DNA of 64,000 nucleotides from Candidatus Poribacteria bacterium (GTDB taxonomy: Bacteria > Poribacteria > WGA-4E > WGA-3G). Shown here piece by piece: positions 1,488 through 62,290 of this stretch. Position 1 is the stretch's first letter. The number at the start of each line of letters is the position of its first letter. Under the pieces are notes generated by a model. That model made no database searches and was not told where the DNA came from. It was given only the letters and a program-made list of their open reading frames with translations. The stretch is taken from assembly GCA_003635315.1 (NCBI GenBank), contig PYJD01000010.1, positions 71,470 through 135,469 of the forward strand, given 5' to 3'. Both the position numbers and the translations under genes were made by a program.

Positions 1488-1679
1488 GACGAATTCCTTC
1501 TGTTGACGACTTATCTAAACAATCAAGAATAAGGAGAAAATTCTATGACCCAGAGATGTAGTAAATAACCTACAAATTAAGGAGAAGCAAAAACTTCTCC
1601 ACAAAATAGTGTTACCTTCACATAGTCGTCTAAAAAAAGATTACACTATCAAATTAATTTCTAACATTATGGACAAAAA

Positions 1680-2240
1680 CTACGAGGATTTTGGCGTTAA
1701 TAACATATACATAACGCGAGTTTCCATACGGGGCGGTTGTTCCACCTCTGCGAGTTCAGAAACATCTTCTTCTAATCGAGCAAGCATATTCTTACCCAAT
1801 TCTGTGTGTAACATTTCCCTACCTCGAAAACGGACAGTAGCTCTCACCTTCCACCCATTCTTCAAAAAGTCTTCTACATGTCTCTTTTTGAATTGATAGT
1901 CATGTTCAGCGGTATCAGGGCGGAATTGTATCTCTTTGAGTACAATCTTTGTCTGTTTCTTTCGGGCTTCCCTTGCTCGTTTATTTTTCTCGTACTGATA
2001 TTTTCCATAATCCATTATCTTACAAACGGGAGGTTTGGCATTTGGAGAAACTTCCACCAAATCTAATCCGACTTCTTCAGCACGTTCCATCGCTTCGCTT
2101 GGGGTCATTACTCCGACTTGCTTATTTTCATGATCAATTAGCAAAATCTCTTTTGCACGAATCTGATAATTCGAGCGAGTTTGCCTTTCCTGCGTTTTTT
2201 GATTACGTTTGCCTCTATAATGTATTTTCGACACCCCCAT
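1680..2240 (-). CDS. infC: Translation initiation factor IF-3 (true start possibly ATA at 2225)
   Basis: LDLVEVSPNAKPPVCKIMDYGKYQY, KEIQFRP and RFRGRE motifs. Confidence 0.98.
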   Translation of the reverse strand: MGVSKIHYRGKRNQKTQERQTRSNYQIRAKEILLIDHENKQVGVMTPSEAMERAEEVGLDLVEVSPNAKPPVCKIMDYGKYQYEKNKRAREARKKQTKIVLKEIQFRPDTAEHDYQFKKRHVEDFLKNGWKVRATVRFRGREMLHTELGKNMLARLEEDVSELAEVEQPPRMETRVMYMLLTPKSS

Positions 2241-2433
2241 AAGTGGTTGGTTTAGAATTCCAGTTATGTAATATTAGAAAAACATAGGTATCTATCCTGA
2301 ACTACACAACTGACTACATCTCGCATTTAGATATATCCACTATATGATAAAATTCAATGATCATGTTAGTGTATATAATGCTACGTGAAAATATGAATAT
2401 GATATTATAATACAAAAACCTACATAATGCAAA

Positions 2434-2790
2434 CTAAAAGTATCCTATCGTCCATAGTGTTCGCAATATAATAACCCCTCCAGATAAACCACCAAGTACG
2501 ATGATAAAACAGAGTGTGATAATGAGTGTGAACTTTAAAATTCGTTCGGCTAATTCAGGCTGTTCTTTTATCCAAGCACGTGCTAATGTAAATGATAGGA
2601 CGATGGTAATTAAACTTAAGAGTGCTGTTCCTAATACAGATAATAGAATCCCTTGAAAGTCTACCATCTCCATCGTATCTGGTATAGAACCGTATTGTGA
2701 ATATCGTTGAATTACATATAGTAAAATACCTAAGAATATTACAAGAAATACGATGAAAACTGCTAATGTGGATTTAAATGCCTTACTCAT
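2434..2790 (-). CDS. Hypothetical membrane protein (about 3 TM)
   Basis: 118 aa ORF with three hydrophobic segments. Confidence 0.7.
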   Translation of the reverse strand: MSKAFKSTLAVFIVFLVIFLGILLYVIQRYSQYGSIPDTMEMVDFQGILLSVLGTALLSLITIVLSFTLARAWIKEQPELAERILKFTLIITLCFIIVLGGLSGGVIILRTLWTIGYF

Positions 2791-2964
2791 TACTTTTATG
2801 TTCTACATTTCATAAGAATACTTTCGATAAATTGTATCTGATTTAATTTTCAATCTCAACCAATATTGTAAATACAGTTAAAAAAATTAAGGTACAGTTC
2901 AAACATTGTTTCCTACATAGAAAATAACCTAAAATTCCTACTCATCTACCATGACATCTTTGAT

Positions 2965-3500
2965 GAAAAAGTTACACTTTTTGTCACATTTTGTGACATT
3001 GAAAAAACGCTGTCCGCCCTGTCACAGTCTGTGTTAATCGGTATTTTCTTAGAATTATAAAAATTCCGAATTTGTGTAATTTTGTGTTTTACATTCCTAT
3101 TCTGCGAGTATCCAATAGAGTAATTTGTAAGCTATGCTGTTTTTGTTTTTTAGAGGATCTGAATAAATTGGATATCCAGTAAATATAGTTTTATTGCTAT
3201 GTGAAAAAGTTACGAAATCGTAACTTTTTTCTGTAACCCCAATTTTAGTAGAATCGCTCTTAGGTAAGTAGCCACCTATGTTTACAGCCAATTTACGAAT
3301 TATTGTAAAAAAATAAAAAAGTTCTTTTGTGGTTTCTTTGGTTCTTGATCCACCATTTAATATGTATGGTATTATTGTCATTTCTATCACTGTGTATATA
3401 AAATCATTAATCATATTGATTTATCTAATATTGGTATTAGTATAAGTATTATAATTTTTCTCTATATGTTATTGTAACGTATATTTTCTCTTAAGTCAAC
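2965..3500 (-). other. Conserved non-coding element, copy A (homologous to 44720-45655 and partly to 14510-14600)
   Basis: 3204-3250 matches 45239-45285 at 46/47 nt in reverse complement. Further colinear blocks at about 2966-3090, 3130-3150 and 3280-3320. Headed by TTGACT-N17-TACAAT (3499-3471). Confidence 0.8.
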
Positions 3501-3618
3501 TCATTCATATATGTGATGTTTGTTCTTTCAAATTTCTTCAATTTATTTTATGAGTTATTTATAACACCTTGTGAACAGGTTGTTAATAGGTTGGAGAGAT
3601 CCCAATATTTGTTAGAAT

Positions 3619-3720
3619 TTGCTTTTTCCTGATAGATTCTGATACAATAATTAAGTTAGTAAACCTTAGAAAGAGCATTTGATCCTATGATTTTATTAGG
3701 GGGTGAGCCCCCTAATTTTT
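3619..3720 (+). ncRNA. Candidate ~65-nt sRNA (coordinates include its promoter)
   Basis: TTGCTT-N18-TACAAT with an extended -10 TG (3619-3648), then terminator ATTAGGGGG-TGAG-CCCCCTAAT-TTTT (3695-3720). No ORF in between. Confidence 0.4.
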
Positions 3721-3872
3721 ATCTATCATTCCATTTCTAATAGATAAGGCATATTTGTGTATTTGTAAGTTTATCCTCAATTTCTGAATGTTATAGGTGT
3801 ATTGAATTGCGCTGCTACGACGTGTTTTTCTCTTAATTTTTGACGATCAATTTGAAATGGTATAATCTTCTT

Positions 3873-4031
3873 ATATCATTTCTAAATAATGATAGGACAT
3901 TATTTCATAAATCGGTTGTCCGAATACAACACTCTCTTCTGTAGGAGCGACCTCCCGGTCGCGACCAGGATGTCACTCCTACAAAGAAAATCGAGAATCG
4001 GAATGATACTTTGTCAATTAGAAATGGTATT
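3873..4031. mobile_element. MITE family A (ATACCATTTCT/AGAAATGGTAT ends) with GTAG-REP cargo; a second copy at about 3728-3863
   Basis: Terminal inverted repeats; internal GTAGGAGCGACC...GGTCGC...CTCCTAC (3941-3982). Confidence 0.75.
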
Positions 4032-4034
4032 ATT

Positions 4035-4589
4035 ATGGATATGAAAACAGACACCATCCCAATTTATACGATAGGCTACGGAAGTCGTTCTATGTCCGAG
4101 TTTATTGACATTCTTCACCAATATAATATTGCATATCTAATCGATGTTCGGTCAGTGCCACATTCTGGTTATAAGAAGGAATACTCCAAAAAACCGCTGG
4201 CGAAGGAACTCGAACAACACGGCATTCGGTATGTGTATATGGGAGACTTACTCGGTGGAAAACCAGAGGATGAATCTTGTTATGTCGACGGAATTGTTGA
4301 TTACGAAAGGGTGAAGGAGACAGAATTTTTTCAGCGAGGTATTGAACGTCTTCGTGCTGCTTTTTCGCAACAGCAATGTGTCGCACTCATGTGTGCTGAG
4401 GAGAAACCGGAGCATTGCCATCGCACTAAACTCATCAGTACAACCCTCACCGATGAAAATTTACCTGTAATCCATATTGATGAAAACAGTGAGGAGATGA
4501 CCCAGGAGCAGATCATTGATCGGATTACACGTGGACAGATGAATTTATTTGGTGATGAACCATTCTACTCGCGTAAGAAACACACCTAA
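4035..4589 (+). CDS. DUF488 family protein
   Basis: IYTIGYG, LIDVRSVP, LGG and ALMCAEEKPEHCHR motifs. The track start at 4011 lies inside a MITE, so ATG 4035 or 4041 is preferred. Confidence 0.9.
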   Translation: MDMKTDTIPIYTIGYGSRSMSEFIDILHQYNIAYLIDVRSVPHSGYKKEYSKKPLAKELEQHGIRYVYMGDLLGGKPEDESCYVDGIVDYERVKETEFFQRGIERLRAAFSQQQCVALMCAEEKPEHCHRTKLISTTLTDENLPVIHIDENSEEMTQEQIIDRITRGQMNLFGDEPFYSRKKHT

Positions 4590-4593
4590 TCCT

Positions 4594-5082
4594 ATGAAGA
4601 TTAAAATCATTACTATTGGTGTATATGGGTTTGATGAGACAGGTTTTTTTGATGCATTGTGCAACGCAAATGTTGATACGTTCTGTGATATTCGCAACCG
4701 ACGTGGTGTGCGTGGTACGACCTATGCATTCGCGAATAGTAAGCGGTTACAGGCACGACTTGAAGAACTTGGCATTCGATACATCTATAGAAAAGATTTG
4801 GGACCAACAAAAAGTGTCCGAGAAAAGCAAGCTGCAGCGGATAAAGCGACTAAAACCCCCAAACGCAAACGGACTGAACTTGGTGAAGTGTTCATTGAAG
4901 CATATCGGACTGAATGCCTCAATGCTTTCGATCCGCAAAGTTTGCTTGACGAATTAGAATCGGATGCACAAGTTGTAGCATTATTTTGTGTTGAAACTAC
5001 GCCAGAGGCATGCCACCGTTCTTTGGTTGCAGAAAAATTGGCGAATACATTTGATTTGGAGGTAGAAGATATTTTACCGTGA
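4594..5082 (+). CDS. DUF488 family protein (second subtype)
   Basis: IITIGVYG, FCDIR, and ALFCVETTPEACHR motifs; stop overlaps the next start (GTGA). Confidence 0.88.
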   Translation: MKIKIITIGVYGFDETGFFDALCNANVDTFCDIRNRRGVRGTTYAFANSKRLQARLEELGIRYIYRKDLGPTKSVREKQAAADKATKTPKRKRTELGEVFIEAYRTECLNAFDPQSLLDELESDAQVVALFCVETTPEACHRSLVAEKLANTFDLEVEDILP

Positions 5083-14319: not shown

Positions 14320-14509
14320 CACCGTATACATTCAACTGACATAGACTTTCAATATTTTATACCTATCCACTACTGTACCTCCCATTTCGTTCTACTCACC
14401 TTCCGCGGTTAGATCTGTTTGCAAATCACAACCTGTTCCTTAATTTGTTTTGTGTGTAGATTTACTTTAACTGGTTTAGATACATAAGTTTAGAAGATGT
14501 CGAAAAACG

Positions 14510-14600
14510 GGAAAATGTCACACTTTTTCCTACATTCTGTAGGATTAATCTTCGTTAAAATTGTGGCTATCAGACCAGTGCTGTACTGGGATTGTTACCC
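14510..14600 (-). other. Partial third copy (B) of the conserved non-coding element
   Basis: GAAAATGTCACACTTTT-TCCTACA-TTC-TGTAGGA-TT versus GAAAAAGTTACACTTTT-TGTCACA-TTT-TGTGACA-TT in copy A. Confidence 0.5.
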
Positions 14601-15435
14601 TAAATATAGAAAAAAGTAGAATTTTAAATTTCTCATTATTGTGCTATTTCTCTGATTTCAATTTTTCTCCAATGTATTCACAAGTGTTAATATTTTGCTG
14701 ACAATTATTAGTTGTTAGTTTATATCTGTTAATACTCGGTAGTTGGTTGTCAGTTAATAGGATATCTGGGCAAATATTTACTGGTTTATATACACCTTCA
14801 AAAGTCTCTGTGTTTAGTTCTGAAATTTGTGTAGGTTTCAATTCTAGTTTTTCTATCAATCTGCTATAAATCCAGTCGGGTAAAGGGATTGTATAGAATT
14901 GTCTGGTATTTACCAGTTTAGTTTTAATATCATAATTTATCTTAACATAATAATCCATCATTGGTGATTTATTCTATTATACATAAAATTATTTAAACAT
15001 ATTCACAAATGGATTACAACCTTATTTTCACGGATGTGACTTTAGATGTTTGTGTATAGATTTTTCTTAATTATTTATATTTTAATTGGAAATATTTGAT
15101 CTTTATGAGGTTTTGTGACGGGTTGTTTGAATCCAAAATCAACGCCGAATGCGCGGAATTAAATCTCGAAATGAATAATGATAAATTCAAAGGTTTGCTA
15201 AATTGGTTTTGTCATAAGGTAAATCTATGAATGACAAATTATGCATTGTGGTACGCAATAAATGTATTGAATTTATGGTTTGTAATAATGATCTAAGACA
15301 TCAAAAAAAATTAAAACACATGAAAATTACAAACTAACATTTCTTACGATAAAACCTCTTTATGTCTATATTTCATGGGTGTAGTAATAGAATGGAATAA
15401 GTGAATTGGGTTAAAAATAACGTAAATTTTTAAAG

Positions 15436-24090: not shown

Positions 24091-24334
24091 TTATTTTTCG
24101 TTCCCTTCTGTAAAATACAATAAGTTATCAGCAAGTCGGATTATATGCAGTAATTTGGTGTTCAATTCTTCGTAGTATCCTATCCATCACAGGATGAGAA
24201 GGAGTCATCTTAAACGCAATTTCATGTAATACCAATTCTATATATTATTCTGTCATTCTTTGTAGGTCGGGTAGAGGTACGAAACCCATAGGTGTCAACT
24301 TAGTGGTTTATAGTTCTCTGATATTGATGTCTTT

Positions 24335-24462
24335 AGTCCCGTAGGGACGGAATGTTTATAGCAAACCGTTATCCTGACCATTCTTGAGTCCCGTAGGGAC
24401 GGAATGTTTATAGAAAAACGTCACATATACCTCTTGAGTCCTGTAGGGACGATATGTTTATA
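24335..24462. repeat. Tandem GTCCCGTAGGGACGGAATGTTTATAG REP-like units (3)
   Basis: Three ~50-bp units; same family at 30781, 38988-39385 and 54965-55060. Confidence 0.8.
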
Positions 24463-24564
24463 TGTTAAATACAGCATGTGTGTATTTATAACAAACAATT
24501 AGTTAACCGGCACAAGTCGTAATTATAACATACCTCAGAATAACACAACCTAACAACCGAATAT

Positions 24565-30546: not shown

Positions 30547-30840
30547 TATACCATTTCTAAGATATATTATGACACATAAAGTCATTCACCCAACCCGGTA
30601 GGACCGGTTTGGAACCGCTCCATTGGCGTCAATTTAGTCCCTTTCCCAAACAGGGTAGGTTCGGTTTGTAACCGAACCATAGCTGTCAACTTAGTCCCTT
30701 TCCCAAACAGGGTAGGTTCGGTTTGTAACCGAACCATAGCTGTCAACTTAAGAAGATCGTTCCATTTTATGGGTGTCTTTCAGTCCCATAGGGACGGAAT
30801 GTTTATAGAAAACCGTTATCCTGACCTTTCTTGAGTTCCG
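30547..30840. repeat. Composite repeat cluster (MITE A left end, REP hairpins, 57-bp tandem duplication)
   Basis: GGTAGGTTCGGTTTGTAACCGAACC twice; GTCAA(C/T)TTA(A)G motifs. Confidence 0.7.
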
Positions 30841-31152: not shown

Positions 31153-31265
31153 ATACCATTTATAATTGAAAATGTTTCATTGTTGTAGCATAAACTGTTA
31201 GTTTGTGCCTTCTCCGTTTCATTTCTAACAACCGGTAATGAGATAATAATTAATAGAAATGGTAT
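31153..31265. mobile_element. MITE family A
   Basis: ATACCATTT...AGAAATGGTAT ends with the TGTAGCATAAAC hairpin. Confidence 0.75.
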
Positions 31266-38893: not shown

Positions 38894-38987
38894 TTCATAC
38901 CTCCTAAATAATCAACAGGTCTATTTAGTTTTCTAAATTTCCTATACATTTTATTTATTACGTTATTGTTATCCTATATAAGTCTTT

Positions 38988-39415
38988 AGTCCCATCGGGA
39001 CGGAATGTTCATAGAAAAAATGTAAACCGCCTCTCTTGAGTCCAGTATGAAGATTAAATAATACTTTGGGTAATTGACGGGCAATGAATTGCCCTACTAC
39101 AAACAGGTTGGTTCGTAGTAGGGTGATTTATCACCCGTTAAGAAATTACTGAATTAATAACTTAATCTTCATTAGGGACGGAATGTCTATAGAAAAAATG
39201 CAAACCACCTCTCTTGAGTTCCGTAGGAACGAAATGTCTATAGAGAAACATATTCACACAGTCTTGAGTTCCGTATGAACGGAATGTCTATAGAAGAACA
39301 TATTCACACAGTCTTGAGTTCCGTAGGAACGGAATGTCTATAGAAAACAATGCGAACCACCTCTCTTGAGTTCCGTAGGAACGGCATAACCAAAAAACAT
39401 ATCGTCCCTACAGGA
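38988..39415. repeat. Tandem array of CTTGAGT(T/C)CCGTAGG(A/G)ACGGAATGTCTATAG units, interrupted by a family C MITE
   Basis: About 6 units of ~50 bp plus an inverted half near 39396-39415. Confidence 0.8.
39046..39174. mobile_element. MITE family C (ATGAAGATTAA/TTAATCTTCAT ends) with a REP doublet
   Basis: Splits one GTAGGGACG unit at its TA; contains GGGCAATGAATTGCCCTACTAC / GTAGTAGGGTGATTTATCACCC. Confidence 0.75.
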
Positions 39416-42898: not shown

Positions 42899-43164
42899 TA
42901 TACTCATATTTTCGTAGGTCGGGTAGAGGTACGAAACCCACCGAATTCCATACGCGGATTCGGCGTTGATATGGACGAATTCCATACGCGGATTCGGCGT
43001 TGATATGGACGAATTCCATACGCGGATTCGGCGTTGATATGGACGAATTCCATACGCGGATTCGGCGTTGATTTGGAAACGGGGTGATTGGGTTTATCCT
43101 ATCGGGTTTTGTGCCTCTACTCGAACTACCGAATTATGTTATATTATCATTTAGAAATGGTATA
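42899..43164. repeat. Nested element: MITE A > REP doublet > four 34-bp tandem repeats (42943-43072)
   Basis: GAATTCCATACGCGGATTCGGCGTTGATATGGAC at 42943, 42977, 43011 and 43045. Confidence 0.85.
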
Positions 43165-44520: not shown

Positions 44521-44719
44521 ACACCCTAAATCAAAAAAAAATGAATAAATACCCAAAGTAAATCAACAAAATACATAAATACCAGAAAATATCTAAAAAT
44601 TTTATGAAGAAACCCAAACCATGACACAACTAAAGACTGAGAATAATAAAATATTTCACAATCACTTTATTAACACATGTAAACAACATAAACTAATACA
44701 TCACAAACAGAACATTTTA

Positions 44720-45655
44720 CCTTGACTCACGATTTTTATTATGTTACTATATATATTACAATAAAAACACCACTTGAAAAGTTGTTGTGAAACTTTCACA
44801 ACAGTTGTGAATTGAAAATAAAATCTCAGATGTCTACAAACCTATACCAGATAAGGGTTTACACCACTTATAACAAGTACAGAGCATGAAATTTTAAAAA
44901 ATTAAATAAAAATATAGGTTTTTCAGGAATAGCTATAAACCCAATCTAAGACAGACTTTAGGGCAATTTAAAGCATAGTGTTAAAAAAATGTGTTGTGAA
45001 AATGTTATTTGTTATTACGAACTAAAGGAGAACTATCAAATCAACCCATGAACATACTACCGAAATACAGTATATCTCACAAAATGATAAACAAAAACTC
45101 CGAAAAGATAGCCCTTAATTGTTGGAACTTATGAGATATATACTACGAAGGAATCCACCAAGTGAACTGTACTAATTTTTTAGATCTAATTCGTAAATTG
45201 CCTGTAAACACTGACGGATACTAACATCACAACGACTATACTAAAATTGGGGTGACAGAAAAAAGTTACGATTTCGTAACTTTTTAAAAAAATAGGAAAC
45301 TTTCTAATGACTATCAAATACATTCAAAATAATCTTAAAAACAAGAACAGCATAACCAATACCATTTCTGAGAAAAAAAGCCGTATGGATGGTGTATGGG
45401 GATGTCATCTAATAGCTAACATACTAATAGGTTATGTTACAATAATGAGATATTATCATTTAGAAAATGTATTACAAATGTCTGTATCAGATATTCACCC
45501 AAAAAATATAAAAAATAAAAAAGTAGAAGGACAGAAAATAACACAATTCAAGAATTGTTACTATTCTAAAAAAACACCGATGAACGCAGACTGTGACAGG
45601 TCGGACAGCCGTTTTACTAATGACACAAAATGTGTCAAAAAGTGCAACATTTTTA
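44720..45655 (+). other. Conserved non-coding element, copy C
   Basis: TTGACT-N17-TACTAT with extended -10 (44722-44750); blocks homologous to copy A at about 45165-45290, 45335-45357 and 45520-45655. Confidence 0.8.
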
Positions 45656-45896
45656 ACATATTGAATAATATTTATTACTAATGTTAATATTGAAAAACCA
45701 ATAAAGTAAAGGCTTTTTATACTAAATTCTATATAATCAGTTGCTACGTTGATTCCCTACGAGGACATGTTATACCTAAATTGACACCTAATTTTTGAAA
45801 TGATATAACCACTAACCCCATTTCGTTTGACTTTGCTATACATGTGTGTTAATGTATATCTATAAATAAGGTTGAATGGAAGGTATTTTATAGTTA

Positions 45897-46928
45897 ATGG
45901 AACAGTGGATTGAACATCTAATTGTTGGCATTCCCAGTATAGGACTGCTTCTGATAGTAGCAGTAATGCTCTACACGCTCGGAAAAGGAGCCGATTGGCT
46001 TGTAGATGAAGCAGTCGTATTATCAACTCGATGGGGATTAGGTAAAGCAGTTATCGGAGCAACAATCGTAAGCATCGGCACAACAACCCCTGAAGCAGCA
46101 GTATCCGTATTTTCAGCGATTCAAGGAAAACCCGATCTCGCTCTCGGTAATGCCGTCGGTTCGATAATATGTGATACAGGTCTTATCCTCGGATTAGCAT
46201 CCCTAATTGCACCGTTATCGTTTAACCGCCAGTTGGCATCCCGTTTATCCAATGTCCAGGTAGGGGCTGGAATTCTCATGGTTCTCGCCTGTTTTCCATG
46301 GTCATCTACAGCAGTAATCTTCACACAAGGTGGAAATCTACCTCAAATAATGGGGTTTATCTTCGTTGTTCTATTAGGGTTGTATGTGTGGCAATCAATA
46401 CGATGGGCAAGTTCAACACCAACAGATGGTGAAGAGGAATCCGAACATTACGAGTCAAGTGCAGCATTAACCCTACTAAAACTCATCGGTTCAATAGCTA
46501 TCGTTGTAATCTCCGCACAAATCCTAATTCCAACAGTAAGTGTATTAGCAGAAAGATTCAATGTTCCAAAAGCAATTATCGCCGCAACATTAGTTGCATT
46601 TGGCACATCACTCCCAGAACTGGTAACTGCCATCACAGCCGTTCGTCGAGGACACGGAGAATTAGCCGTTGGCAATATCATTGGTGCAGACATTCTAAAT
46701 GTGCTTTTTGTTGCAGGTGTCTCAGCATCAGCCACGCCTACCGGTCTAAAGGCATCACCTCAGTTCTTTCAATTCCTGTTCCCAGCGATGGTCTTCATTT
46801 TAATCGTCTTCCGAATCGGTATTTTCGTATCGGGAAGCCAGTTGAAACGTCCATTTGGTTTTGTCTTGGTTGGAACATATATACTGGTAACAATACTCAG
46901 CTACATTTTCTCAATTGATATGCATTAA
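45897..46928 (+). CDS. Calcium/sodium antiporter (YrbG-like, CaCA family)
   Basis: Two alpha repeats: GTTTPE..GNAVGS and GTSLPE..GNIIGADILN. Confidence 0.93.
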   Translation: MEQWIEHLIVGIPSIGLLLIVAVMLYTLGKGADWLVDEAVVLSTRWGLGKAVIGATIVSIGTTTPEAAVSVFSAIQGKPDLALGNAVGSIICDTGLILGLASLIAPLSFNRQLASRLSNVQVGAGILMVLACFPWSSTAVIFTQGGNLPQIMGFIFVVLLGLYVWQSIRWASSTPTDGEEESEHYESSAALTLLKLIGSIAIVVISAQILIPTVSVLAERFNVPKAIIAATLVAFGTSLPELVTAITAVRRGHGELAVGNIIGADILNVLFVAGVSASATPTGLKASPQFFQFLFPAMVFILIVFRIGIFVSGSQLKRPFGFVLVGTYILVTILSYIFSIDMH

Positions 46929-47224: not shown

Positions 47225-49099
47225 ATGTCCCGAATACCGTTCTTAATTCTCTCCATCCTACTCTCCATACAGGTTATAGCACCAAACGTTTCTGCCCAAA
47301 ACTACGGAAAATGGGGGTTACCCGATGGTGCGAAAGTACGTCTTGGTAAAGGCATTGCTACACAGGTCATATCCTCCCCAGATGGAAAACTAATTGCTGT
47401 AGCAAGTTCTACAGGTGTTTGGATACACGATGCACTGACGGGTGAAGAACTTTACCTACTAAAGGAACAAAACGCTTATGCCTTCTGTGTGGCATTCAGT
47501 CCAGACGGATTAACTTTAGCCAGTGCAGGTACAGATAGAATTGTTCGTTTATGGGATGTGCGAACAGGTACAGAACTTAGAACAATGACAGGACATAAAA
47601 TGAGCATAAATAGTGTGGATTTCAGTCCGGATGGGAAGATTGTAGTAAGTGGTAGTCACGATACGACTGTCCGGTTATGGAACGTACAGACCGGAACGTT
47701 AATAAATACCCTTGAAGGATACACGGACCGATTCGGAACGGTAGTATTCAGTACAGATGGTACAATGCTTGCTATCACAAATCGAGAATATAAAATATAT
47801 CTATGGGATATAACAACAGCAACCTTACTTCACACACTCAAGGGACATGAAAAACGTATAAGACGTGTCGTTTTCAACTCAGACGATAAATTCCTTCTTA
47901 GTAATAGCTCTGATCGAACAGTACGCATGTGGGATGTAAACACAGGGTCAGCTCTTCAAACACTAATAGGGTACAGACCTGAAGAGGTTGTAGGTGTCCA
48001 ATACAATCCAGATACTAAAACGATTCTAAGTGTAAGGTTATGGGATAATACCTTTACAACAAAAGATGTCATCACAGGTGAAACACAACCAACATTTAGT
48101 GATAACATAGATAACAAGAATCGTATTGAGTTAATTCGGGATGGGAAAACCTATATAACGGGTGGATTAGGTGAAACTCTTCAGGTATGGGATGTGAAAA
48201 CATTGACAGTCCTTCAGGATCTGAAAGGTTATACCAATAGAGTCCGAGCTGTAGCATTCAGTATCGACGGGAACATCATCGCAACTGGGGGTAGTGGAAG
48301 TGTTACTGTCAGTTTGTGGGATGTAGAAACAGGAAATCTACTTAATGAACTCTCAGGACATACGGGTAGGGTCTCAGACGTAGTATTTAGTCCAGATGGA
48401 AAGACCCTCCTAAGTTCCAGTTATTCCGATGAAACGATAAGATTATGGGATATCCAATCCGGTAATTTAATCCGAATGTTCTCAAAACATACAGACGGAG
48501 TCAGCAGTATAGCACTTAGTCCAGATGGGAACATACTTGCAGCAGGTAGTGACGAACCGTCCATTCTTATATGGAATCCACATACAGGAGATCAACTTAG
48601 ATCACTTAAAGGTCATACAAAAAATATCGTGAGTCTTGCCTTCAGTCCAGATGGAGATATATTAGCAAGTGGAAGTTGGGATTACACTATACGGCTTTGG
48701 GATATGCACACAGGTGACAATATACATGTACTATCGGATCACATGAATAGGGTGAGTAGTTTAGCATTTACGCCAGATGGTGGTACACTCGCAAGCGGAA
48801 GTTGGGACGACACAATCATATTATGGGATGTAGAAACAGGTGAAGCTATACAATCCTTGTCTGGACATGCAGATGATGTACAATCCGTCACCATTAGTCC
48901 AGATGGTAGAATGCTGGTCAGTGGCTGTTGGGACAGTACGATCCGTTTGTGGGATATACAGACAGGAGTACATATTATTACGCTGAATGGACATACTGGT
49001 AGTATTGATAGTCTGGCATTCAGTCCGGATAGTAAAACACTTGCATCCGGTAGTTTCGATGGAACCGTTCTCCTCTGGGATTTGAACCCAAACCCGTAG
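47225..49099 (+). CDS. Secreted WD40-repeat protein
   Basis: Signal peptide; WGLPDGAKVRLGKG; about 14 GH...FSPDG...WD repeats. Confidence 0.93.
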   Translation: MSRIPFLILSILLSIQVIAPNVSAQNYGKWGLPDGAKVRLGKGIATQVISSPDGKLIAVASSTGVWIHDALTGEELYLLKEQNAYAFCVAFSPDGLTLASAGTDRIVRLWDVRTGTELRTMTGHKMSINSVDFSPDGKIVVSGSHDTTVRLWNVQTGTLINTLEGYTDRFGTVVFSTDGTMLAITNREYKIYLWDITTATLLHTLKGHEKRIRRVVFNSDDKFLLSNSSDRTVRMWDVNTGSALQTLIGYRPEEVVGVQYNPDTKTILSVRLWDNTFTTKDVITGETQPTFSDNIDNKNRIELIRDGKTYITGGLGETLQVWDVKTLTVLQDLKGYTNRVRAVAFSIDGNIIATGGSGSVTVSLWDVETGNLLNELSGHTGRVSDVVFSPDGKTLLSSSYSDETIRLWDIQSGNLIRMFSKHTDGVSSIALSPDGNILAAGSDEPSILIWNPHTGDQLRSLKGHTKNIVSLAFSPDGDILASGSWDYTIRLWDMHTGDNIHVLSDHMNRVSSLAFTPDGGTLASGSWDDTIILWDVETGEAIQSLSGHADDVQSVTISPDGRMLVSGCWDSTIRLWDIQTGVHIITLNGHTGSIDSLAFSPDSKTLASGSFDGTVLLWDLNPNP

Positions 49100-51411: not shown

Positions 51412-52257
51412 GTGAATACAGAAACGCATGAATTTAGTTTAACAGAAGATGAACGTTCCTCGTGGGAGGAGAATGGATACTTTCTCCGGTATAATGTGTT
51501 TACAAAAGAGGAAAACGATATCTTAGCAAAAATCGCTGATGATATAGTAAATAGAAAACGAAGCTTTCCAGAATACCACATCTTTGAAAACGCGTTAGTC
51601 AGAGATGGTAAGGCTGAAGCTGAAGGAATTTATGCCATACATAATATCCAATATGTAAGCTGTAATTGTAGAGAATTTCTTGATCGCACGCGTGACCCAC
51701 GACTCACAGATCCTGCAGCAGACATACTCGGTCCGGATCTACTTGGACTCAATAATTTATATATTTGGAAACCACCAGAAATAGGATTAGGGTTCCCTTG
51801 GCATCAAGATAAATGGTATTTTAATCATCAATATAAGACGGGTACCACCGTTGCAACTTGGACTGCGATTGATGATGCTGATGAAGAAAATGGATGTCTG
51901 TATGTTATCCCAGGTAGTCATAAACATGGGGTAAAAGATCATAATGAACTTGAAGGATCTCAACAAGGCGAATTCAGACAGGCAGAGGGAGCAAGAGATG
52001 AGGACGGTATTCCTATCGAAGTTCCCGCGGGTTCGGTAATATGGTTCAATAGTCAAGTACTCCATAAGAGCACTGATAATCACAGTTCACGTTTTCGACG
52101 GGCAAATGTAGCGCACTATATCAACGCAAAAGCTGAATGGACACGACCTGAAGCGGTGAATAAGAAACGACCTCCTATGTGGATACGTGGTAAGACATAT
52201 CCGGGAATGGGGGATGAAGTACAACATGATATCATTCCAATCATAGAATCCGATTGA
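51412..52257 (+). CDS. Phytanoyl-CoA dioxygenase (PhyH) family 2OG/Fe(II) oxygenase 1
   Basis: WHQD...NGCLYVIPGSH...LHKS..N...R. Confidence 0.93.
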   Translation: MNTETHEFSLTEDERSSWEENGYFLRYNVFTKEENDILAKIADDIVNRKRSFPEYHIFENALVRDGKAEAEGIYAIHNIQYVSCNCREFLDRTRDPRLTDPAADILGPDLLGLNNLYIWKPPEIGLGFPWHQDKWYFNHQYKTGTTVATWTAIDDADEENGCLYVIPGSHKHGVKDHNELEGSQQGEFRQAEGARDEDGIPIEVPAGSVIWFNSQVLHKSTDNHSSRFRRANVAHYINAKAEWTRPEAVNKKRPPMWIRGKTYPGMGDEVQHDIIPIIESD

Positions 52258-52333
52258 GGATGATCATGGGACGAATTGTTTATCGATATTTAGATAGAAT
52301 CATACGACGAAGATATTTCATATAGGGTAAATT

Positions 52334-53182
52334 GTGGGAAAGAATACATCCAGTGAAGATAGAAAATATAGAATAACTCCAGAGGAGAAGATCTCTTGGC
52401 AAGATAACGGTTATTTCATCCGTTACGATGTCTTTTCCTCCCAAGAAAACAGGGCATTAGGACAAATCGCAGATGATATAGTTGAAGGCAAGAGACCATT
52501 TCCCTCTAATGGTATACATAAAAATGCCTTAGTGACGGATGGTAAAGCTGAAGCATCAGGTGTCAACGCTATGCACTGTATCCATCATATCAATAAACAT
52601 TCACCTGAATTTCTTTCTCGTACTCGTGACTCGCGGCTTACGGATCCTATTGTTGACCTAATTGGACCAGATATCCTTGGACTAAATAACCTATATATCT
52701 GGAAACCTCCAAGAATCGGTTTAGGTTTTCCTTGGCATCAAGATAAATGGTATTTCAATAATCAGTATATCACTACAAAGACTGTGGGAACATGGACAGC
52801 TATTGACAATTCCGATGTTGAAAATGGATGTCTATATGTTATCCCAGGAAGTCATAAGAGTGGTGTTCATGAGCATGTTAATCTTGAAGGATCACAACAG
52901 AATGAGTTTAAATTTGCCGTGGGTGCGATAGATGAAGATGGTATCCCAGTAGAAGTCCCTGCAGGTAGTGTCATATTTTTCAACAATCAGATTCTGCATA
53001 AGAGCACCGACAATCATAGTGATCGCTTTCGTAGGTGTAATGTCGCACATTATATATGCGCCCATTCCGATCGAGTGGAAAATGTAAAAAACAAACGCGC
53101 GGTTATGTGGGTCAGGGGTGATACATACTCTAAAAAGATGGAACCTGTCTATTATGATGTTCTCCCTTTGACAGAAGAATAG
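52334..53182 (+). CDS. PhyH family dioxygenase 2
   Basis: Same motifs as dioxygenase 1. Confidence 0.93.
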   Translation: MGKNTSSEDRKYRITPEEKISWQDNGYFIRYDVFSSQENRALGQIADDIVEGKRPFPSNGIHKNALVTDGKAEASGVNAMHCIHHINKHSPEFLSRTRDSRLTDPIVDLIGPDILGLNNLYIWKPPRIGLGFPWHQDKWYFNNQYITTKTVGTWTAIDNSDVENGCLYVIPGSHKSGVHEHVNLEGSQQNEFKFAVGAIDEDGIPVEVPAGSVIFFNNQILHKSTDNHSDRFRRCNVAHYICAHSDRVENVKNKRAVMWVRGDTYSKKMEPVYYDVLPLTEE

Positions 53183-53190
53183 AAGATAGG

Positions 53191-54042
53191 ATGTATATGT
53201 CTATTGTAGAAAAAGAATTTGCATTATCAGCTGAAGAACAATCCTCTTGGGAGGAAAATGGTTTTATCATTCGGTATGATGTATTCACAGAGGAAGAGAA
53301 CGATGTCTTACGACGAATCGCAGATGAAATTGCCCAAGGAAAACGACTGTTTCCATCAGCCAACATAAATCAGAATGCATTGGTGAGAGATGGAAAGGTT
53401 GAAGAAACCGGCATAAACGCAATGCATAAAATACATCATGTCAGTTGTTATATTCCAGAATTCCTTGAACGTGTTAGAGATCCTCGTCTCACAGATCCTA
53501 TTGTTGATCTCCTTGGTCCAGATCTTCTCGGTCTCAACAATCTATATATTTGGAAAGCCCCAAAGATTGGATTAGGATTCCCATGGCATCAGGATAAATG
53601 GTATTTTAACCATCAATATAAGACAGAAATGACAGTAGGAACATGGACTGCTATTGATGGTGCAGATAAAGATAACGGTTGTCTTTATGTTATCCCAGGT
53701 AGTCACAAACATGGCATTTATGACCATGCAGATCTGGAAGGTTCACAACAGAGTGAGTTTAAACTGGCACAAGGTGTAAAGGATGAAGACGGGGTTGCTG
53801 TTGAAGTTCCACCTGGTGGTGTTGTTTGGTTTAATAACCAAATCCTGCACAAAAGCACTGATAATCATAGCCTTCGTTTCAGACGTGCCAATGTTGCCCA
53901 TTATATAAGTGCAAAAGCTGAACGGATACCAAAAAAGAATCCCAAGTTTATTCGACCTGCTATGTGGATTCGAGGGAAAATATATCCAAATAGGATGGAT
54001 CCTGTATATCGTGATGTATTGCCTATACCTGAATCCAGCTAA
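53191..54042 (+). CDS. PhyH family dioxygenase 3
   Basis: Same motifs as dioxygenase 1. Confidence 0.93.
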   Translation: MYMSIVEKEFALSAEEQSSWEENGFIIRYDVFTEEENDVLRRIADEIAQGKRLFPSANINQNALVRDGKVEETGINAMHKIHHVSCYIPEFLERVRDPRLTDPIVDLLGPDLLGLNNLYIWKAPKIGLGFPWHQDKWYFNHQYKTEMTVGTWTAIDGADKDNGCLYVIPGSHKHGIYDHADLEGSQQSEFKLAQGVKDEDGVAVEVPPGGVVWFNNQILHKSTDNHSLRFRRANVAHYISAKAERIPKKNPKFIRPAMWIRGKIYPNRMDPVYRDVLPIPESS

Positions 54043-54079
54043 ATCCAATATATGGAGACCATGAAAATCAGGAATTGTT

Positions 54080-54934
54080 ATGAATACGAATACTTCTCAA
54101 GAACGTAAATATGGAATGACTCCAGAGGAAATATCCTTTTGGCATGAGAATGGTTATCTTGTCCGATACGATGTTTTCAAGAAAGACGAAAACGACTTAC
54201 TACGACAAGTAGCTGAAGATGTTGTTGATGGTAAACGTCCCTTCCCCTCTGCCCATATCGACCAAAATGCATTGGTTAGGGATGGTAAGATAGAAGAACA
54301 AGGGATCTATGCCATGCACAAGATACATCATCCAAGTTGTTTCGTTTCCGAATTCCTCAATCGTGTAAGAGATAGTCGTTTAACAGATCCAATAGTCGAT
54401 ATTTTTGGTCCAGATATTCTTGGTATCAACAATCTATTTATTTGGAAAGCCCCAAAAATCGGATTAGGATTTCCATGGCATCAGGATATGTTCTATTTTA
54501 GAAATAGGTTTGATACGGAGACAACTGTTGGTACATGGACAGCAATTGATGCTGCTGATATTGACAACGGCTGTTTGTATGTTGTACCGGGTAGTCATAA
54601 TCATGATATACATGAACATGATGATCTTGAGGGTTCACAGCAACGAGAGTTTAAATTAGCACGCGATGTAAGTGATGAAGACGGTATTGCTGTTGAAGTT
54701 CCTCCCGGTGGTGTGGTTTGGTTTCATAGTCATCTCCTTCATAAGAGTACAGATAATCATAGTCTACGATTCAGGAGAAGTTACGTATCCCATTATCTGA
54801 GTGCCCAAGCAAAATGGGCAAAGCACGATGGATCCTACAAAGGTCAACCCATTATGTGGATACGCGGGGAAACCTATCCAGATAGAGTTCACGAAGTACA
54901 ACGTGATGTCATTCCCTTTCCCGATTCAGAATGA
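54080..54934 (+). CDS. PhyH family dioxygenase 4
   Basis: Same motifs, with a WHQDMFYF variant. Confidence 0.93.
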   Translation: MNTNTSQERKYGMTPEEISFWHENGYLVRYDVFKKDENDLLRQVAEDVVDGKRPFPSAHIDQNALVRDGKIEEQGIYAMHKIHHPSCFVSEFLNRVRDSRLTDPIVDIFGPDILGINNLFIWKAPKIGLGFPWHQDMFYFRNRFDTETTVGTWTAIDAADIDNGCLYVVPGSHNHDIHEHDDLEGSQQREFKLARDVSDEDGIAVEVPPGGVVWFHSHLLHKSTDNHSLRFRRSYVSHYLSAQAKWAKHDGSYKGQPIMWIRGETYPDRVHEVQRDVIPFPDSE

Positions 54935-55210
54935 TTATAGTCTCTTCTCATAGGTAAGAACATTTATAGTGGATACACTTTTGCTATAAACATTCCGTCC
55001 CTACAGAACTCCCTATGGTGGATATACTTTTGCTATAAACATTCCGTCCCTACGGGACTAAGGAGGTTTTCTGCACTTGAAAAATCCTTAAATTGACACC
55101 TATAGAATGAAACGAGTAAAGCACAAACTAACAGTTTATGCTACAAAGGGACATTATATATCATAAACGGTATAAGAACATTCTAACTTACATTTACCCT
55201 AAAGGAACTA

Positions 55211-60355: not shown

Positions 60356-62290
60356 ATGAAAAACATTAGGTTAATCATTCTTGGTCTGTTATGCATAATT
60401 CTATTTAGTAATTCAGGTCTAAGTCTCGCGAAAGATATAAAGGACTTCAGTTTACCAGATCATGCAGTTGCTCGATTGGGAAAGGGGATTATTAACGATT
60501 TTAAACATTCACCTGATGGAAAACATTTTGCAGTAGCTTCCTCAATTGGTATTTGGGTGTATGAGACAACGAACTATAAAGTAGTCAGTTTATTAACAGG
60601 ACACTTGGGGGGAGTCAATTGTATATCCTTTAGTCCAGATGGTAGAACACTTGCAAGTGGTAGTCCTGATAAAACCGTACGACTTTGGGATGTTGCCACA
60701 GGAATTGAGAAAAAGACACTAAGTGGTCATCCGCATGCTATTACCAGTATCACCTTTAGTCCCGATGGTAAAACAGTTGCAAGTGGTAATATGGGTATTG
60801 ATGGTGGTGATAGGTTGTATGAAATCACCGTCCGACTATGGGATGCCTTTACTGGGGAGCTCAAACATACACTCACTGATTTCACTGGAGAAGTAAATAG
60901 TCTGGCATTTAGTTCAGATGGAGAAGTACTCGTGAGTGGAGAAGGTTATCCAGATAATGTCGTCCAGCTATGGAATACGGATACAGGGAAATCAATACAT
61001 TCCTTTAAGTCTCAAGTAGGAAGTATTGAACAGGTCTTTATTACTCCGGATAATACAATAATTAGTCTGGGTGGAGATAATAAAGTACAGGCTTGGGATT
61101 CAATTACACTTACACCTAAAAATTTGCTGCCAGATAAAGTCGGACGTGTGATCGGTCTTACCTCAAGTTTTGATGGAAAGACGTTTGTCAGCTGTGGTGA
61201 AGATAAAATAATTCGTCTATGGAACACCGAAACAGGTAGGAACACTCATGAATTTTCAATCTACAATAGAACGACCAATATTTCACTCAGTCCAAATCAA
61301 GAATTTCTCATAACGAAAGATTTGGGGAATGTATTGGGGGTTTGGGAAATTGAAACAGGGATTCTCAAACACACGATTACCGGTTTTACCGACCCAATCA
61401 GGGATATTGCATTGGCAGCTGACGACAACACTATTGCCTGTGCCAGTTATCGTGTGGTTGAGATCTGGCAAATTTCAACAGGAAACAAATTACACACACT
61501 TGCAGGACACGATCACAACGTAGATACTGTGGCATTTAACTCTGATGGTAGCCTTCTTGCAAGTGGAAGTTTTGACACCTCTATTCGTCTGTGGGATGCT
61601 ATGTCAGGCGTATATCAACACACACTAACACAAGACAGAATCGGTGAAGTAAGTTCTTTAGCTTTTAGTCCTGATGGAAAAACACTTGTAAGTGGTCACT
61701 ATCATACGCTTCACAAATGGAATGTACCTAACAAAAGACATATCCAAAAACTGGAAGGCCAGAATAATCAGATAAATAGCGTAGCAATCAGTTCCGATGG
61801 TAAAACAATTGCCAGTGGTGGGATAGCCGCATATAACGGTGAGGACAATTTTGGGAATAAGGCAATATACCTATGGGATTTAGCGACTGGAAAATACAAG
61901 AAGACACTTTCTGGGAACATGGGGGACACAAATTGTGTTGCTTTCAGTCCGGATGGGAAATTATTGGCAAGTGGATGTGAAAATGTGTGGGACGAAGAGA
62001 TGGATGCTGTGATAGTATGGGATGTTGTATCAGGGAGTCAATTGAGTATATTGAAAGGTCATACAGGAAGTGTGTATAGAGTGGAATTTAGTTCAGATGG
62101 AAATACTCTGGCAAGTGGCGGTGCGGATAAAACTATTCGTCTCTGGGATGTAAAGACACAGAAACACATTTATACATATACTGGTCATAATGGTGAAATT
62201 AAAGGTCTTGCATTTACTCAGGATGGGAGTAAATTGGTGAGTGGTAGCGCGGATGGAACTATATTCGTCTGGAAAATTCCAACTCATTAA
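60356..62290 (+). CDS. Secreted WD40-repeat protein
   Basis: FSLPDHAVARLGKG followed by multiple WD40 repeats. Confidence 0.93.
   Translation: MKNIRLIILGLLCIILFSNSGLSLAKDIKDFSLPDHAVARLGKGIINDFKHSPDGKHFAVASSIGIWVYETTNYKVVSLLTGHLGGVNCISFSPDGRTLASGSPDKTVRLWDVATGIEKKTLSGHPHAITSITFSPDGKTVASGNMGIDGGDRLYEITVRLWDAFTGELKHTLTDFTGEVNSLAFSSDGEVLVSGEGYPDNVVQLWNTDTGKSIHSFKSQVGSIEQVFITPDNTIISLGGDNKVQAWDSITLTPKNLLPDKVGRVIGLTSSFDGKTFVSCGEDKIIRLWNTETGRNTHEFSIYNRTTNISLSPNQEFLITKDLGNVLGVWEIETGILKHTITGFTDPIRDIALAADDNTIACASYRVVEIWQISTGNKLHTLAGHDHNVDTVAFNSDGSLLASGSFDTSIRLWDAMSGVYQHTLTQDRIGEVSSLAFSPDGKTLVSGHYHTLHKWNVPNKRHIQKLEGQNNQINSVAISSDGKTIASGGIAAYNGEDNFGNKAIYLWDLATGKYKKTLSGNMGDTNCVAFSPDGKLLASGCENVWDEEMDAVIVWDVVSGSQLSILKGHTGSVYRVEFSSDGNTLASGGADKTIRLWDVKTQKHIYTYTGHNGEIKGLAFTQDGSKLVSGSADGTIFVWKIPTH

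Follow-up and report, generated by a model that had tools for sequence, protein, structure and literature searches.

Promoter-Bearing Intergenic Repeats with a Shared Palindromic Box in a Lineage of Candidatus Poribacteria

Introduction

What is an intergenic segment that stands near one end of a 64,000-nt stretch of a Candidatus Poribacteria genome, returns in inverted form 42 kb away, begins with a promoter-like sequence and ends with a palindrome? The stretch (the window) covers positions 71,470 to 135,469 of contig PYJD01000010.1 in assembly GCA_003635315.1 (G000:C10:71470-135469 in our numbering), and the genome, G000, comprises 4.33 Mb in 50 contigs with 38% G+C. The segment is called copy A, its inverted counterpart copy C, and a third, partial likeness copy B. 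Our reading, to which we give a probability of about 0.55, is that copy A belongs to a superfamily of intergenic cassettes, peculiar to this lineage, that carry promoters and are non-coding or no longer coding; their distribution would be explained by spread, by promoter action and by a box that serves as an address.

The locus had been described in an earlier note made from the letters of the window alone, and everything that it states about the sequence was confirmed. Copies A and C are inverted and colinear, with 83% identity over 111 nt (3204-3314 and 45175-45285) and 81% over 85 nt (3003-3087 and 45531-45615). The perfect 12+12 palindrome of AAAAAGTTACGA and TCGTAACTTTTT is present at both 3204-3229 and 45260-45285, and the roughly 130 nt by which copy C is longer consist of gaps of 115 and 16 nt, which are deletions of copy A relative to the long copies in general. 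The dyads near the end of the elements read TGTCACA-TTT-TGTGACA in copy A, TCCTACA-TTC-TGTAGGA in copy B and TGACACA-AAA-TGTGTCA (45621-45637) in copy C. Promoter-like sequences of the TTGACT-N17-TAC(A/T)AT type are present at copies A and C (Table 1), and the aligned reading frame of copy C contains stops.

Family Size and Modular Structure

The element had been taken to occur in three copies. Its dispersed, multi-copy nature stood, and the number was an undercount: BLASTN searches with A(-) and C(+) returned 114 loci from their own genome, 58 of them at least 400 nt long, with E-values down to 1e-89, a likeness far above chance level. Copy B has to be removed from the set, as its backbone is another one, F2, and the box is all that it has in common with the others. 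Copies A and C belong to F3, a repeat of 590-750 nt with about 45 copies in G000, which is headed by a promoter and tailed by the box. Per-position BLAST coverage of A(-) amounts to about 41-56 copies at positions 20-430 and to 90 copies at 561-600, and an alignment of 14 copies including their flanks places the 5' boundary of F3 at AAATAAATTGAAGAAAT. Copies are 74-88% identical over 350-600 nt. The long form found in copy C is the commoner one, and the 115-nt deletion of copy A is shared by about eight other copies.

The box is about 36 nt long and consists of AAT, a 7-bp dyad with a 3-nt centre, AAAAAGTGTAAC, W and TTTT. From 150 BLAST matches, 144 boxes were kept after removal of four reverse-strand duplicates and two boxes with variant 12-mers, one of which is copy C, where the 12-mer reads AAAAAGTGCAAC. 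The same box is carried by at least four unrelated backbones (F1, 69; F3, 36; F2, 22; F4, 6; other, 17), several of the boxes counted as other being unclassified members of F1-F3. F1 is a repeat of about 430 nt with the box at its middle. The promoter module of F3, in the form seen in copy A, also heads at least six F1 bodies, and the elements are therefore modular mosaics.

Phylogenetic Distribution

The element family is lineage-specific and confined to four genomes of one genus. The exact box pattern occurs in 4 of 176 genomes of the phylum, with 131 boxes in G000, 92 in G004, 53 in G022 and 2 in G097; there were none in the 172 others, and a reversed control pattern gave none anywhere. Among 41 relatives, the F3 body was found in G000, G004 and, in part, G022, and three further genomes gave only single matches of 27-31 nt to the central palindrome. 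A scan of 185,579 species genomes gave, among the matches listed, 49 loci labelled uncultured bacterium or Poribacteria and four single ones in unrelated taxa, a number that is near chance by a rough estimate.

The statement that the element resembles no described family agrees with the database searches, as no Rfam family and no phage or plasmid record matched. Rfam gave no match across the whole window and, for two loci with F1, F2 and F3 copies, only two chance-level matches (22-27 bits against thresholds of 50 and 180), and no match was obtained in 50,697 phage or 72,556 plasmid records (blastn, word size 11). No published description of Poribacteria repeats of this kind was found among the top results of a broad search, which is weak evidence of absence from the literature.

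In the 120-contig assembly of G004, many boxes lie less than 250 nt from contig ends (e.g., C6:139, C9:2, C17:47, C23:73, C26:59, C41:199). Box repeats probably break short-read assemblies of this lineage.

Genomic Placement and Downstream Genes

The elements are placed in 5' intergenic regions and face the downstream gene. Genes were represented by open reading frames (ORFs) of at least 130 aa, and in G000 the next downstream ORF lies on the strand of the box for 131 of 145 boxes. Among 135 intergenic boxes, 77 are in tandem and co-oriented with the genes, 47 lie between divergent genes, 8 are in tandem and anti-oriented, and 3 lie between convergent genes; 11 further boxes fell within an ORF proxy. 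The first 30 loci of the related genomes gave similar counts, with 24 in the same orientation, 3 opposite and 3 unscorable in G022, and 22, 3 and 5 in G004. The strand of the elements shows no link to local GC skew (20/23/23/21) whereas the strand of the genes follows it (526:257 and 380:587), and the orientation of the elements is therefore set by the gene and not by replication.

The downstream genes are not paralogues, in agreement with the earlier remark that the neighbours are unrelated: 112 downstream proteins fall into 90 clusters. A Pfam scan covered 100 of 105 distinct downstream proteins, and 79 of these 100 belong to a Pfam family, with mixed functions. Housekeeping genes among them encode ribosomal proteins S2 (rpsB, Ribosomal_S2) and S12 (rpsL, Ribosom_S12_S23), GAPDH (gap, Gp_dh) and NADH dehydrogenase chain 3 (nuoA, Oxidored_q4), as well as cytochrome bd (Cyt_bd_oxida_I), LepA, PurD (GARS), ThiI, Dus, Lnt, SurA and DisA. 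Recurrent families include Laminin_G_3 (seven), GFO_IDH_MocA (five), sulfatase (three) and WD40 (three). Boxes lie a median of 389 nt before the start codon, with 219 nt as the 10th percentile. A regulon defined by function was considered and rejected, as the genes downstream of both dyad alleles are functionally mixed and no association between functional class and dyad allele was seen among them.

Conservation of the Promoter and the Box

The promoter TTGACA-N17-TACAAT is perfect in 27 of 37 copies that carry the F3 5' module, and the relaxed form TTGNNN-N16-18-TANNNT is kept in 33 of the 37. By a rough estimate, about 7% of copies would be expected to keep a perfect promoter by drift if its twelve positions varied like the rest of copies that are about 80% alike. 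Single promoter-like matches occur at chance level in the AT-rich window (10, against 10.8 in shuffled sequences), and the promoter is meaningful because it is kept across copies. In the box, each position of the 12-mer is identical in 141-144 of 144 boxes; the detection of solo boxes by BLAST favours conserved boxes, and the F1 backbone used alone recovered the same 69 copies. Judged by variation among copies, the promoter hexamers and the box are under stronger constraint than the body.

Dyad Alleles and Neighbouring Boxes

The dyad exists as three alleles, GAC/GTC, GTC/GAC and CCT/AGG, all of which occur on F1, F2 and F3. On the F1 tree the alleles are unclustered, with 22 changes against 20.6 in shuffled assignments, and at least three of the changes are forced by well-supported branches. 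The step from CCT..AGG to GAC..GTC needs six simultaneous substitutions, so that the alleles must move as blocks, most simply by short-patch conversion between identical flanks.

Neighbouring boxes follow a rule. There are 15 pairs within 1.5 kb among the 144 boxes of G000; all 15 have the same orientation, and 14 combine a CCT-type box with a G-type box. The fifteenth pair combines GTC/GAC with GAC/GTC, and like alleles are never neighbours. A count of 14 heterotypic pairs was reached in 0 of 20,000 within-family label permutations, and the close pairs span at least eight family configurations. Going by the listed positions, four of the 92 boxes of G004 are of the CCT type, and its single close pair is heterotypic; in G022 none of the 53 boxes is of that type, and neighbours are never less than 4.4 kb apart. 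The neighbour rule is the most unusual and the most testable feature of the family. The rule could have arisen because like boxes are lost by deletion between them, because two different binders are required, or because composite units are copied. The near-invariant 12-mer beside the dyad, taken together with the neighbour rule, would fit a protein-recognition or recombination site, in the direction of the nucleoprotein platform suggested in the earlier note, but no partner of the box turned up.

Three known types of site were compared with the box and its surroundings, and the first two were dropped. For a CRP-like site, the spacing of the half-sites does not fit the consensus. The layout of a sigma-54 enhancer (dyad, IHF-like site, GG..GC) was sought by eye on the F1 consensus, where the GG-GC spacing is 9 nt and not the 10 nt of the consensus for such promoters and where the IHF-like site misses the last base of its consensus. 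The attC sites of integrons are imperfect palindromes of 57-141 bp with the order R''-L''...L'-R' and a GTTRRRY core, and they form arrays beside an integrase. By eye, GTTACAC and GTTACGA do not fit that core, and the boxes are dispersed; no search for an integrase was made.

RNA Structure

The earlier note had proposed a long structured RNA with co-varying palindromes. The terminal dyad does vary, as discrete alleles and not as a spectrum, and the central palindrome is invariant. The input to RNAalifold comprised 33 full-length copies, each taken from the predicted start up to a point 70 nt beyond the box. Many helices were predicted, and the variation among copies mostly breaks their pairs. 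The box hairpin, with three doubly compensated pairs, is the sole helix supported in this way, and the proposal of a long structured RNA is not supported by this evidence. Of 14 other helices with at least four pairs, five have one doubly changed pair each, and all contain non-pairs, with 80-96% of cells paired. The central palindrome has 99% of its cells paired and never varies in a compensated way in the 33 long copies; being invariant, it is uninformative on RNA structure either way. As a candidate intrinsic terminator it was set aside: it was not flagged by a terminator scan, and by eye its 6-bp stem, 4-nt loop and T5 run are weak.

The variants in the related genomes were also compared. 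At G004-like loci, 16 of 34 box stems have one mismatch, T.T or A.A, and at G022-like loci all seven dyads read TGTCACA..TGTGACA. The variant tables give no clear signal of a preference for G-U wobble pairs among the dyad variants. The dyad variation amounts to two or three fixed alleles together with a degenerate W, and to judge from these letters it looks more like the half-sites of a dimeric DNA-binder than like an RNA stem.

A multi-copy RNA gene or cis-acting leader nevertheless has to be weighed. It would run from the promoter to the central palindrome as an RNA of about 260 nt, or into the downstream gene as a 600-nt 5' leader, and an RNA-binding protein would recognise the box hairpin with AAAAAGUGUAAC and thereby control termination, stability or translation. 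The conserved promoter, the A5-stem-T5 palindrome that is perfect in 33 of 33 long copies, the three compensated pairs of the box stem, and the pieces of box and central block in contigs of metatranscriptome libraries would all suit such a gene, as would the strong co-orientation with the downstream gene in three genomes, which is what a transcribed element requires. However, covariation is essentially nil outside the box, nearly half of the sister-genome box stems are mismatched as described above, Rfam gives no match, no conserved promoter of the F3 type was demonstrated upstream of F2 and F4 boxes, and a pure pairing constraint would be expected to leave a spectrum of dyads in place of two or three fixed alleles. 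We regard an RNA gene or leader of this kind as unlikely, and conclude that the F3 family consists of dispersed promoter-bearing intergenic repeats and not of a folded RNA gene.

Proposed Spread and Mode of Action of the Cassettes

The tree of F1 is star-like, with 47 of 66 inner branches unresolved and a median terminal branch of 0.11, as would be expected after a burst of copying. The rpsB locus of G000 contains a 1286-nt mosaic of repeats that includes an F3 copy, and the corresponding interval of G004 measures 37 nt. The loci of A and C are without the element in G022, and synteny at these two loci is broken in G004 and G022. The orthologous loci of G022 and G004, which have no element, are homologous to the gene locus of copy A up to about 2866-2873, just upstream of a promoter-like site that belongs to the gene, so that the cassette was added upstream of the native promoter without taking its place.

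Under the preferred reading, the cassettes would be DNA that moved or recombined and so spread within the common ancestor of G000, G004 and G022, as the star-like tree and the insertion relative to the sister genome suggest. Each cassette would consist of its own sigma-70-type promoter, an A-rich body transcribed from that promoter, and the box near its 3' side. Only insertions co-directional with the neighbouring gene would have been tolerated or useful; if the promoter fires, only such insertions persist, which would explain the 77:8 ratio among tandem regions and the near absence from convergent ones. For about 140 transcription units, the cassettes may today provide an additional promoter upstream or a long leader. 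The box would be read on DNA by a dimeric protein with an adjacent sequence-specific contact, and would serve as an address for propagation, recombination or regulation, with the dyad alleles as mutually incompatible variants.

A bolder version of this reading can be formulated, and we think it rather unlikely. A protein system peculiar to the lineage would use the box as its address, installing cassettes before genes and keeping them there, and about 4-5% of transcription units would have been re-headed in three Poribacteria species, including rpsB, rpsL, gap and nuoA. The alleles would be heterospecific, in that identical boxes in cis recombine or interfere and are hence unseen, and short-patch conversion would switch genes between two allele classes, that is, two binders and two regulons. 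If true, promoter cassettes would be managed genome-wide through the box, with incompatibility classes built in, and no such system is known to have been described for bacterial repeats.

Several observations weigh against the reading as promoter cassettes that have spread. Mobility is an indirect conclusion, since no transposase linked to the element was found, no terminal inverted repeats join the family ends in A or C (the best pair, 74% over 19 nt, extends outside the conserved 3' boundary), and no shared direct repeat indicative of target-site duplication was seen by eye in the flanks of 14 F3 and 30 F1 copies, whose 3' boundaries are fuzzy. The rpsB insert is a mosaic of at least four repeat types in which no exact junction can be read. 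The genes used in the placement counts are ORF proxies and not annotations, and the 14 boxes that break the orientation rule include copy B. Between the element and its start codon, the gene of copy A retains a promoter-like site of its own, so that the cassette promoter may be dispensable. In one orthologous copy of G000 and G004, the element core has 94-97% identity, compared with 93-100% for the adjacent gene and 76-88% for nearby non-coding DNA, but the orthologous copy upstream of gap, at 86-87% against 89% for the gene, is no better conserved, so that the evidence on constraint in the body is mixed. Window positions 1600-4700 were compared with three metatranscriptome runs and one DNA run; the runs contain a 90-95% identical relative without copy A, and the contigs from the RNA libraries, which can contain DNA, cover only the box or the central palindrome of other copies at depths of 2-56. 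In addition, the forward strand is poor in stops: the longest open run per copy is 101 codons in the median, compared with 51 for dinucleotide shuffles. Runs of at least 140 codons occur in 12 of 58 copies against 0 of 1160 shuffles. The loop base N of ACA-N-AA-TGT in G000 is C in 60 boxes, G in 52, A in 31 and T in none (0/143), and the absence of T is not predicted by a pure DNA or RNA site.

Movement in trans by a Y1/HUH enzyme, with the cassettes as non-autonomous single-strand DNA transposons of the REP/RAYT or IS200/IS605 kind (REP, repetitive extragenic palindromic), is a further alternative, which we find very improbable. The architecture of a hairpin followed directly by the invariant 12-mer, the many solo boxes, the lack of terminal inverted repeats and of any target duplication seen by eye, the CTAC..GTAG contained in the CCT allele, and a genome rich in other REP-like repeats with four Y1_Tnp matches are what such elements would show. 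However, orientation is independent of the replication strand, whereas IS200/IS605 insertion is strand-biased. Of the 40 genomes of the genus, 36 have Y1_Tnp (PF01797) and four have boxes; 33 of the 36 box-free genomes are among those with Y1_Tnp, so that the enzyme does not track the box. No box flanks any of the four Y1_Tnp genes of G000 (C43:33664, 42884, 57672; C30:30323), none of the 15 close pairs is inverted, and the elements, at 430-750 nt and with promoters, are far larger than REPs.

As a separate observation, G009, a genome of the same genus, has 21 Y1_Tnp matches (e.g., C1:783886-784240), many of them as two overlapping halves with one in-frame TAG, and this set looks like an expanded IS200-like element with a recurrent interruption.

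Coding Capacity

The open runs raise the question of whether F3 is a gene. It could represent a gene some 190 codons long that was amplified, promoter included, about 45-fold, in which case most copies are pseudogenes and a few intact ones (e.g., C44:26459-27193, 195 aa) yield a small protein, with the box encoding the C-terminus ..CDRADSRFTNDTxCVKKCNIF. The depletion of stops is restricted to the forward strand, as the reverse strand has no excess of open run length over shuffles; ORFs of 146-197 aa in nine copies traverse both palindromes; and one frameshift between the C17 and C44 copies is compensated. The frame in which the box reads N-D-T-x-C-V-K-K-C-N is the most open one in every family, with total medians of 58, 61, 33, 39 and 33 codons, and the base never T in G000 is the first position of a codon in it; neither point is accounted for by a non-coding reading. 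The ratio of nonsynonymous to synonymous substitution rates (dN/dS) is below 1 in 35 of 36 pairs.

These points are set against a larger body of evidence. The dN/dS values extend from 0.42 to 1.08 over the 36 pairs, despite protein-guided alignments of pre-selected open copies, which bias them low. Variation is equal across codon positions (0.175/0.165/0.188) with no third-position excess, and blocks are kept at all codon positions (46/47 nt). Aligned with the best ORF, the 56 other copies have 4-17 frameshifting indels and mostly 1-9 in-frame stops. No relatives were found beyond the copies of the element itself, with only 14 matches in 5.8 billion clusters, and a profile search gave only 22 in 1.84 billion representatives, all of them fragments of 65-162 aa. 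Pfam and NCBIfam contain no family for the F3 frame, F2 and F4, as read from their sequences, have no start codon in the box frame, and one box of G004 has TAA at the loop codon. Purifying selection on codons together with an intact frame in most members was not found. A recoded stop was rejected as an explanation, as the in-frame stops are a mixture of TAA, TAG and TGA and no single reassignment opens the frames.

Overall, protein coding is not supported, and we hold a small-protein gene family to be distinctly unlikely. Our own reading of the open runs is that the backbone descends from an open frame or is selected to stay one, and it may be translated as a sequence-indifferent leader, but is no conserved protein.

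Comparison with Known Repeat Systems

The closest concept is that of putative mobile promoters (PMPs), reported by Matus-Garcia, Nijveen and van Passel (2012, as summarised in PMC3575422) as highly similar non-coding sequences upstream of non-paralogous genes, with no known mobilising gene and with a promoter or other regulatory role left open. Most PMP families are pairs within a 100-nt upstream slice from -150 to -50 (PMC3575422). The present family resembles PMPs in having similar non-coding sequence before non-paralogues and no known mobilising gene, and with 74-88% identity over 350-600 nt before genes of 90 clusters (112 proteins) it falls under their core definition of at least 80% identity over at least 50 nt upstream of non-paralogous genes. 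It falls outside the -150 to -50 slice, given the median box distance of 389 nt and the native promoter-like DNA between copy A and its gene, and it differs from PMPs in its 144 members, its four backbones of 300-750 nt, its shared box and its allele rule.

Correia elements have been cited as promoter-bearing mobile repeats (PMC3575422). The present elements are like them in being dispersed, multi-copy, intergenic and promoter-carrying, near gene starts and of a kind that can alter expression. In Neisseria, Correia elements are about 100-155 bp long, with terminal inverted repeats and a TA duplication. In contrast to these and to other MITEs, the present family is without inverted ends; it is also 4-6 times longer than Correia elements and has a strictly fixed orientation. 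REPs, BIMEs and REPINs also combine a short palindrome with a conserved flanking word, in hundreds of copies and several sequence classes per genome. The usual places of REPs are 3' of genes and between convergent genes, in inverted pairs, whereas the boxes lie upstream, singly or in direct pairs and within long promoter-bearing backbones, and do not track Y1_Tnp. REPINs are among the elements cited in PMC3575422 and PMC8049555.

The LDR loci (long direct repeats) and other multi-copy type I toxin-antitoxin loci of enterobacteria exist in few copies and encode a short hydrophobic peptide and an antisense RNA. Likeness to LDR lies in repeats of about 500 nt with their own promoter, a small open frame and conserved hairpins; the present backbones differ in having 45-70 copies each, no hydrophobic peptide and no demonstrated antisense promoter. 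Heterospecific spacer variants of lox and FRT sites coexist in direct orientation because only like pairs recombine. The boxes likewise have the same outer parts and different centres, a resemblance in behaviour only, as a box with 7-bp arms and a 3-nt spacer is not built as the core site of a tyrosine or serine recombinase and no recombinase is linked to it.

Dispersed promoter-bearing repeats have been proposed to allow fast rewiring of transcription in bacteria, and few large families are well characterised. The present family is large and sharply bounded (four of 176 genomes), and among the genes that it fronts are core housekeeping ones and also those for sulfatases, oxidoreductases and lectin-like proteins, which are recurrent in the genome. 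Its conserved promoter, invariant 12-mer, discrete dyad alleles and neighbour exclusion are directly testable internal features. If the box has a protein partner, it would offer a handle on regulation and genome plasticity of uncultivated sponge symbionts, and natural incompatible site variants within one genome. If it has none, the family would still be an annotated repeat family that explains contig breaks, rearrangements and spurious small ORF calls in metagenome-assembled genomes.

Features of the Window

The features of the three loci are collected in Table 1.

Table 1. Positions of copies A, B and C, their parts and their downstream genes in the window.
Feature	Position	Strand	Basis or remark
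Copy A, short-form F3 (promoter module, body with 115-nt deletion, box)	2960..3548	-	Own-genome BLAST coverage, alignment
Copy A sigma-70-type promoter TTGACT-N17-TACAAT	3471..3499	-	Sequence and family conservation
Copy A open frame, 105 codons; remnant of stop-poor frame	3097..3414	-	Nine other copies reach 146-197 codons; gene status not supported
Perfect 12+12 palindrome AAAAAGTTACGA-AA-TCGTAACTTTTT, terminator-like, followed by T run on element strand	3204..3229	.	Inverted-repeat scan, 100%
Copy A box AAT-GTCACA-AAA-TGTGAC-AAAAAGTGTAAC-TTTTT	2966..3001	-	Dyad 2982-2998; 12-mer 2971-2982 (+ strand numbering)
Gene downstream of copy A, co-oriented, 118 aa, no Pfam family	2434..2790	-	ORF and Pfam scan
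Native promoter-like TTGAGA-N17-TACAAT of the gene of copy A	2859-2831	-	Promoter scan
Copy B, F2 backbone, only the box in common with F3 (C10 86015)	14340..14665	-	12-mer 14517-14528; dyad TCCTACA-TTC-TGTAGGA 14528-14544; coordinates approximate, F2 extending about -120..+190 around the box
Alternative 5' module of copy C, about 7 genome copies	44700..45140	+	BLAST coverage of 5-12 copies over C(+) 21-460
Copy C promoter-like TTGACT-N17-TACTAT	44722-44750	+	Within alternative 5' module
Copy C long-form F3 body	45150..45700	+	Central palindrome 45260-45285; box ~45618-45652
Gene downstream of copy C, co-oriented, 343 aa, Na_Ca_ex	45897..46928	+	ORF and Pfam scan

In the rarer 5' module of copy C, a perfect 10+10 palindrome, TGTTGTGAAA-C-TTTCACAACA, is present at 44783-44803, about 35 nt 3' of the promoter-like site, in an operator-like position.

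Other Repeats and Gene Arrays

Several other repeats were noted in the window. A tandem 34-nt unit (CGAATTCCATACGCGGATTCGGCGTTGATATGGA) forms at least four copies with 99-100% identity at 42908-43077, and related words occur in the mosaic upstream of rpsB. REP-like arrays of about 50 nt, with the palindrome GTCCCGTAGGGAC and a GTAG core, are present in both orientations at 24330-24481, 30777-30840, 38983-39413 and 54971-55064. A palindromic repeat, TGTAGCACAAAC-TGTTAG-TTTGTGC, often in tandem at 73-nt spacing, was found at 31184, 44281, 49213, 49286 and 55106-55146, as well as in G000:C50 (L208 3130-3390), and repeats of the TGTAGCACAAAC type also flank F1 copies. The word AGAAATGGTATAA(T), which has the look of an extended -10 element (TGGTATAAT), occurs in many intergenic regions, at 4003-4037, 36130, 43136, 58349 and other positions of the window, and at the edge of the rpsB insertion. 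Among the genes, four tandem paralogues of 281-284 aa with 61-77% DNA identity occupy 51412-54934. Two large WD40-repeat genes, whose repeats cross-match, lie at 47225-49099 and 60356-62290, and WD40 genes are also found downstream of boxes elsewhere.

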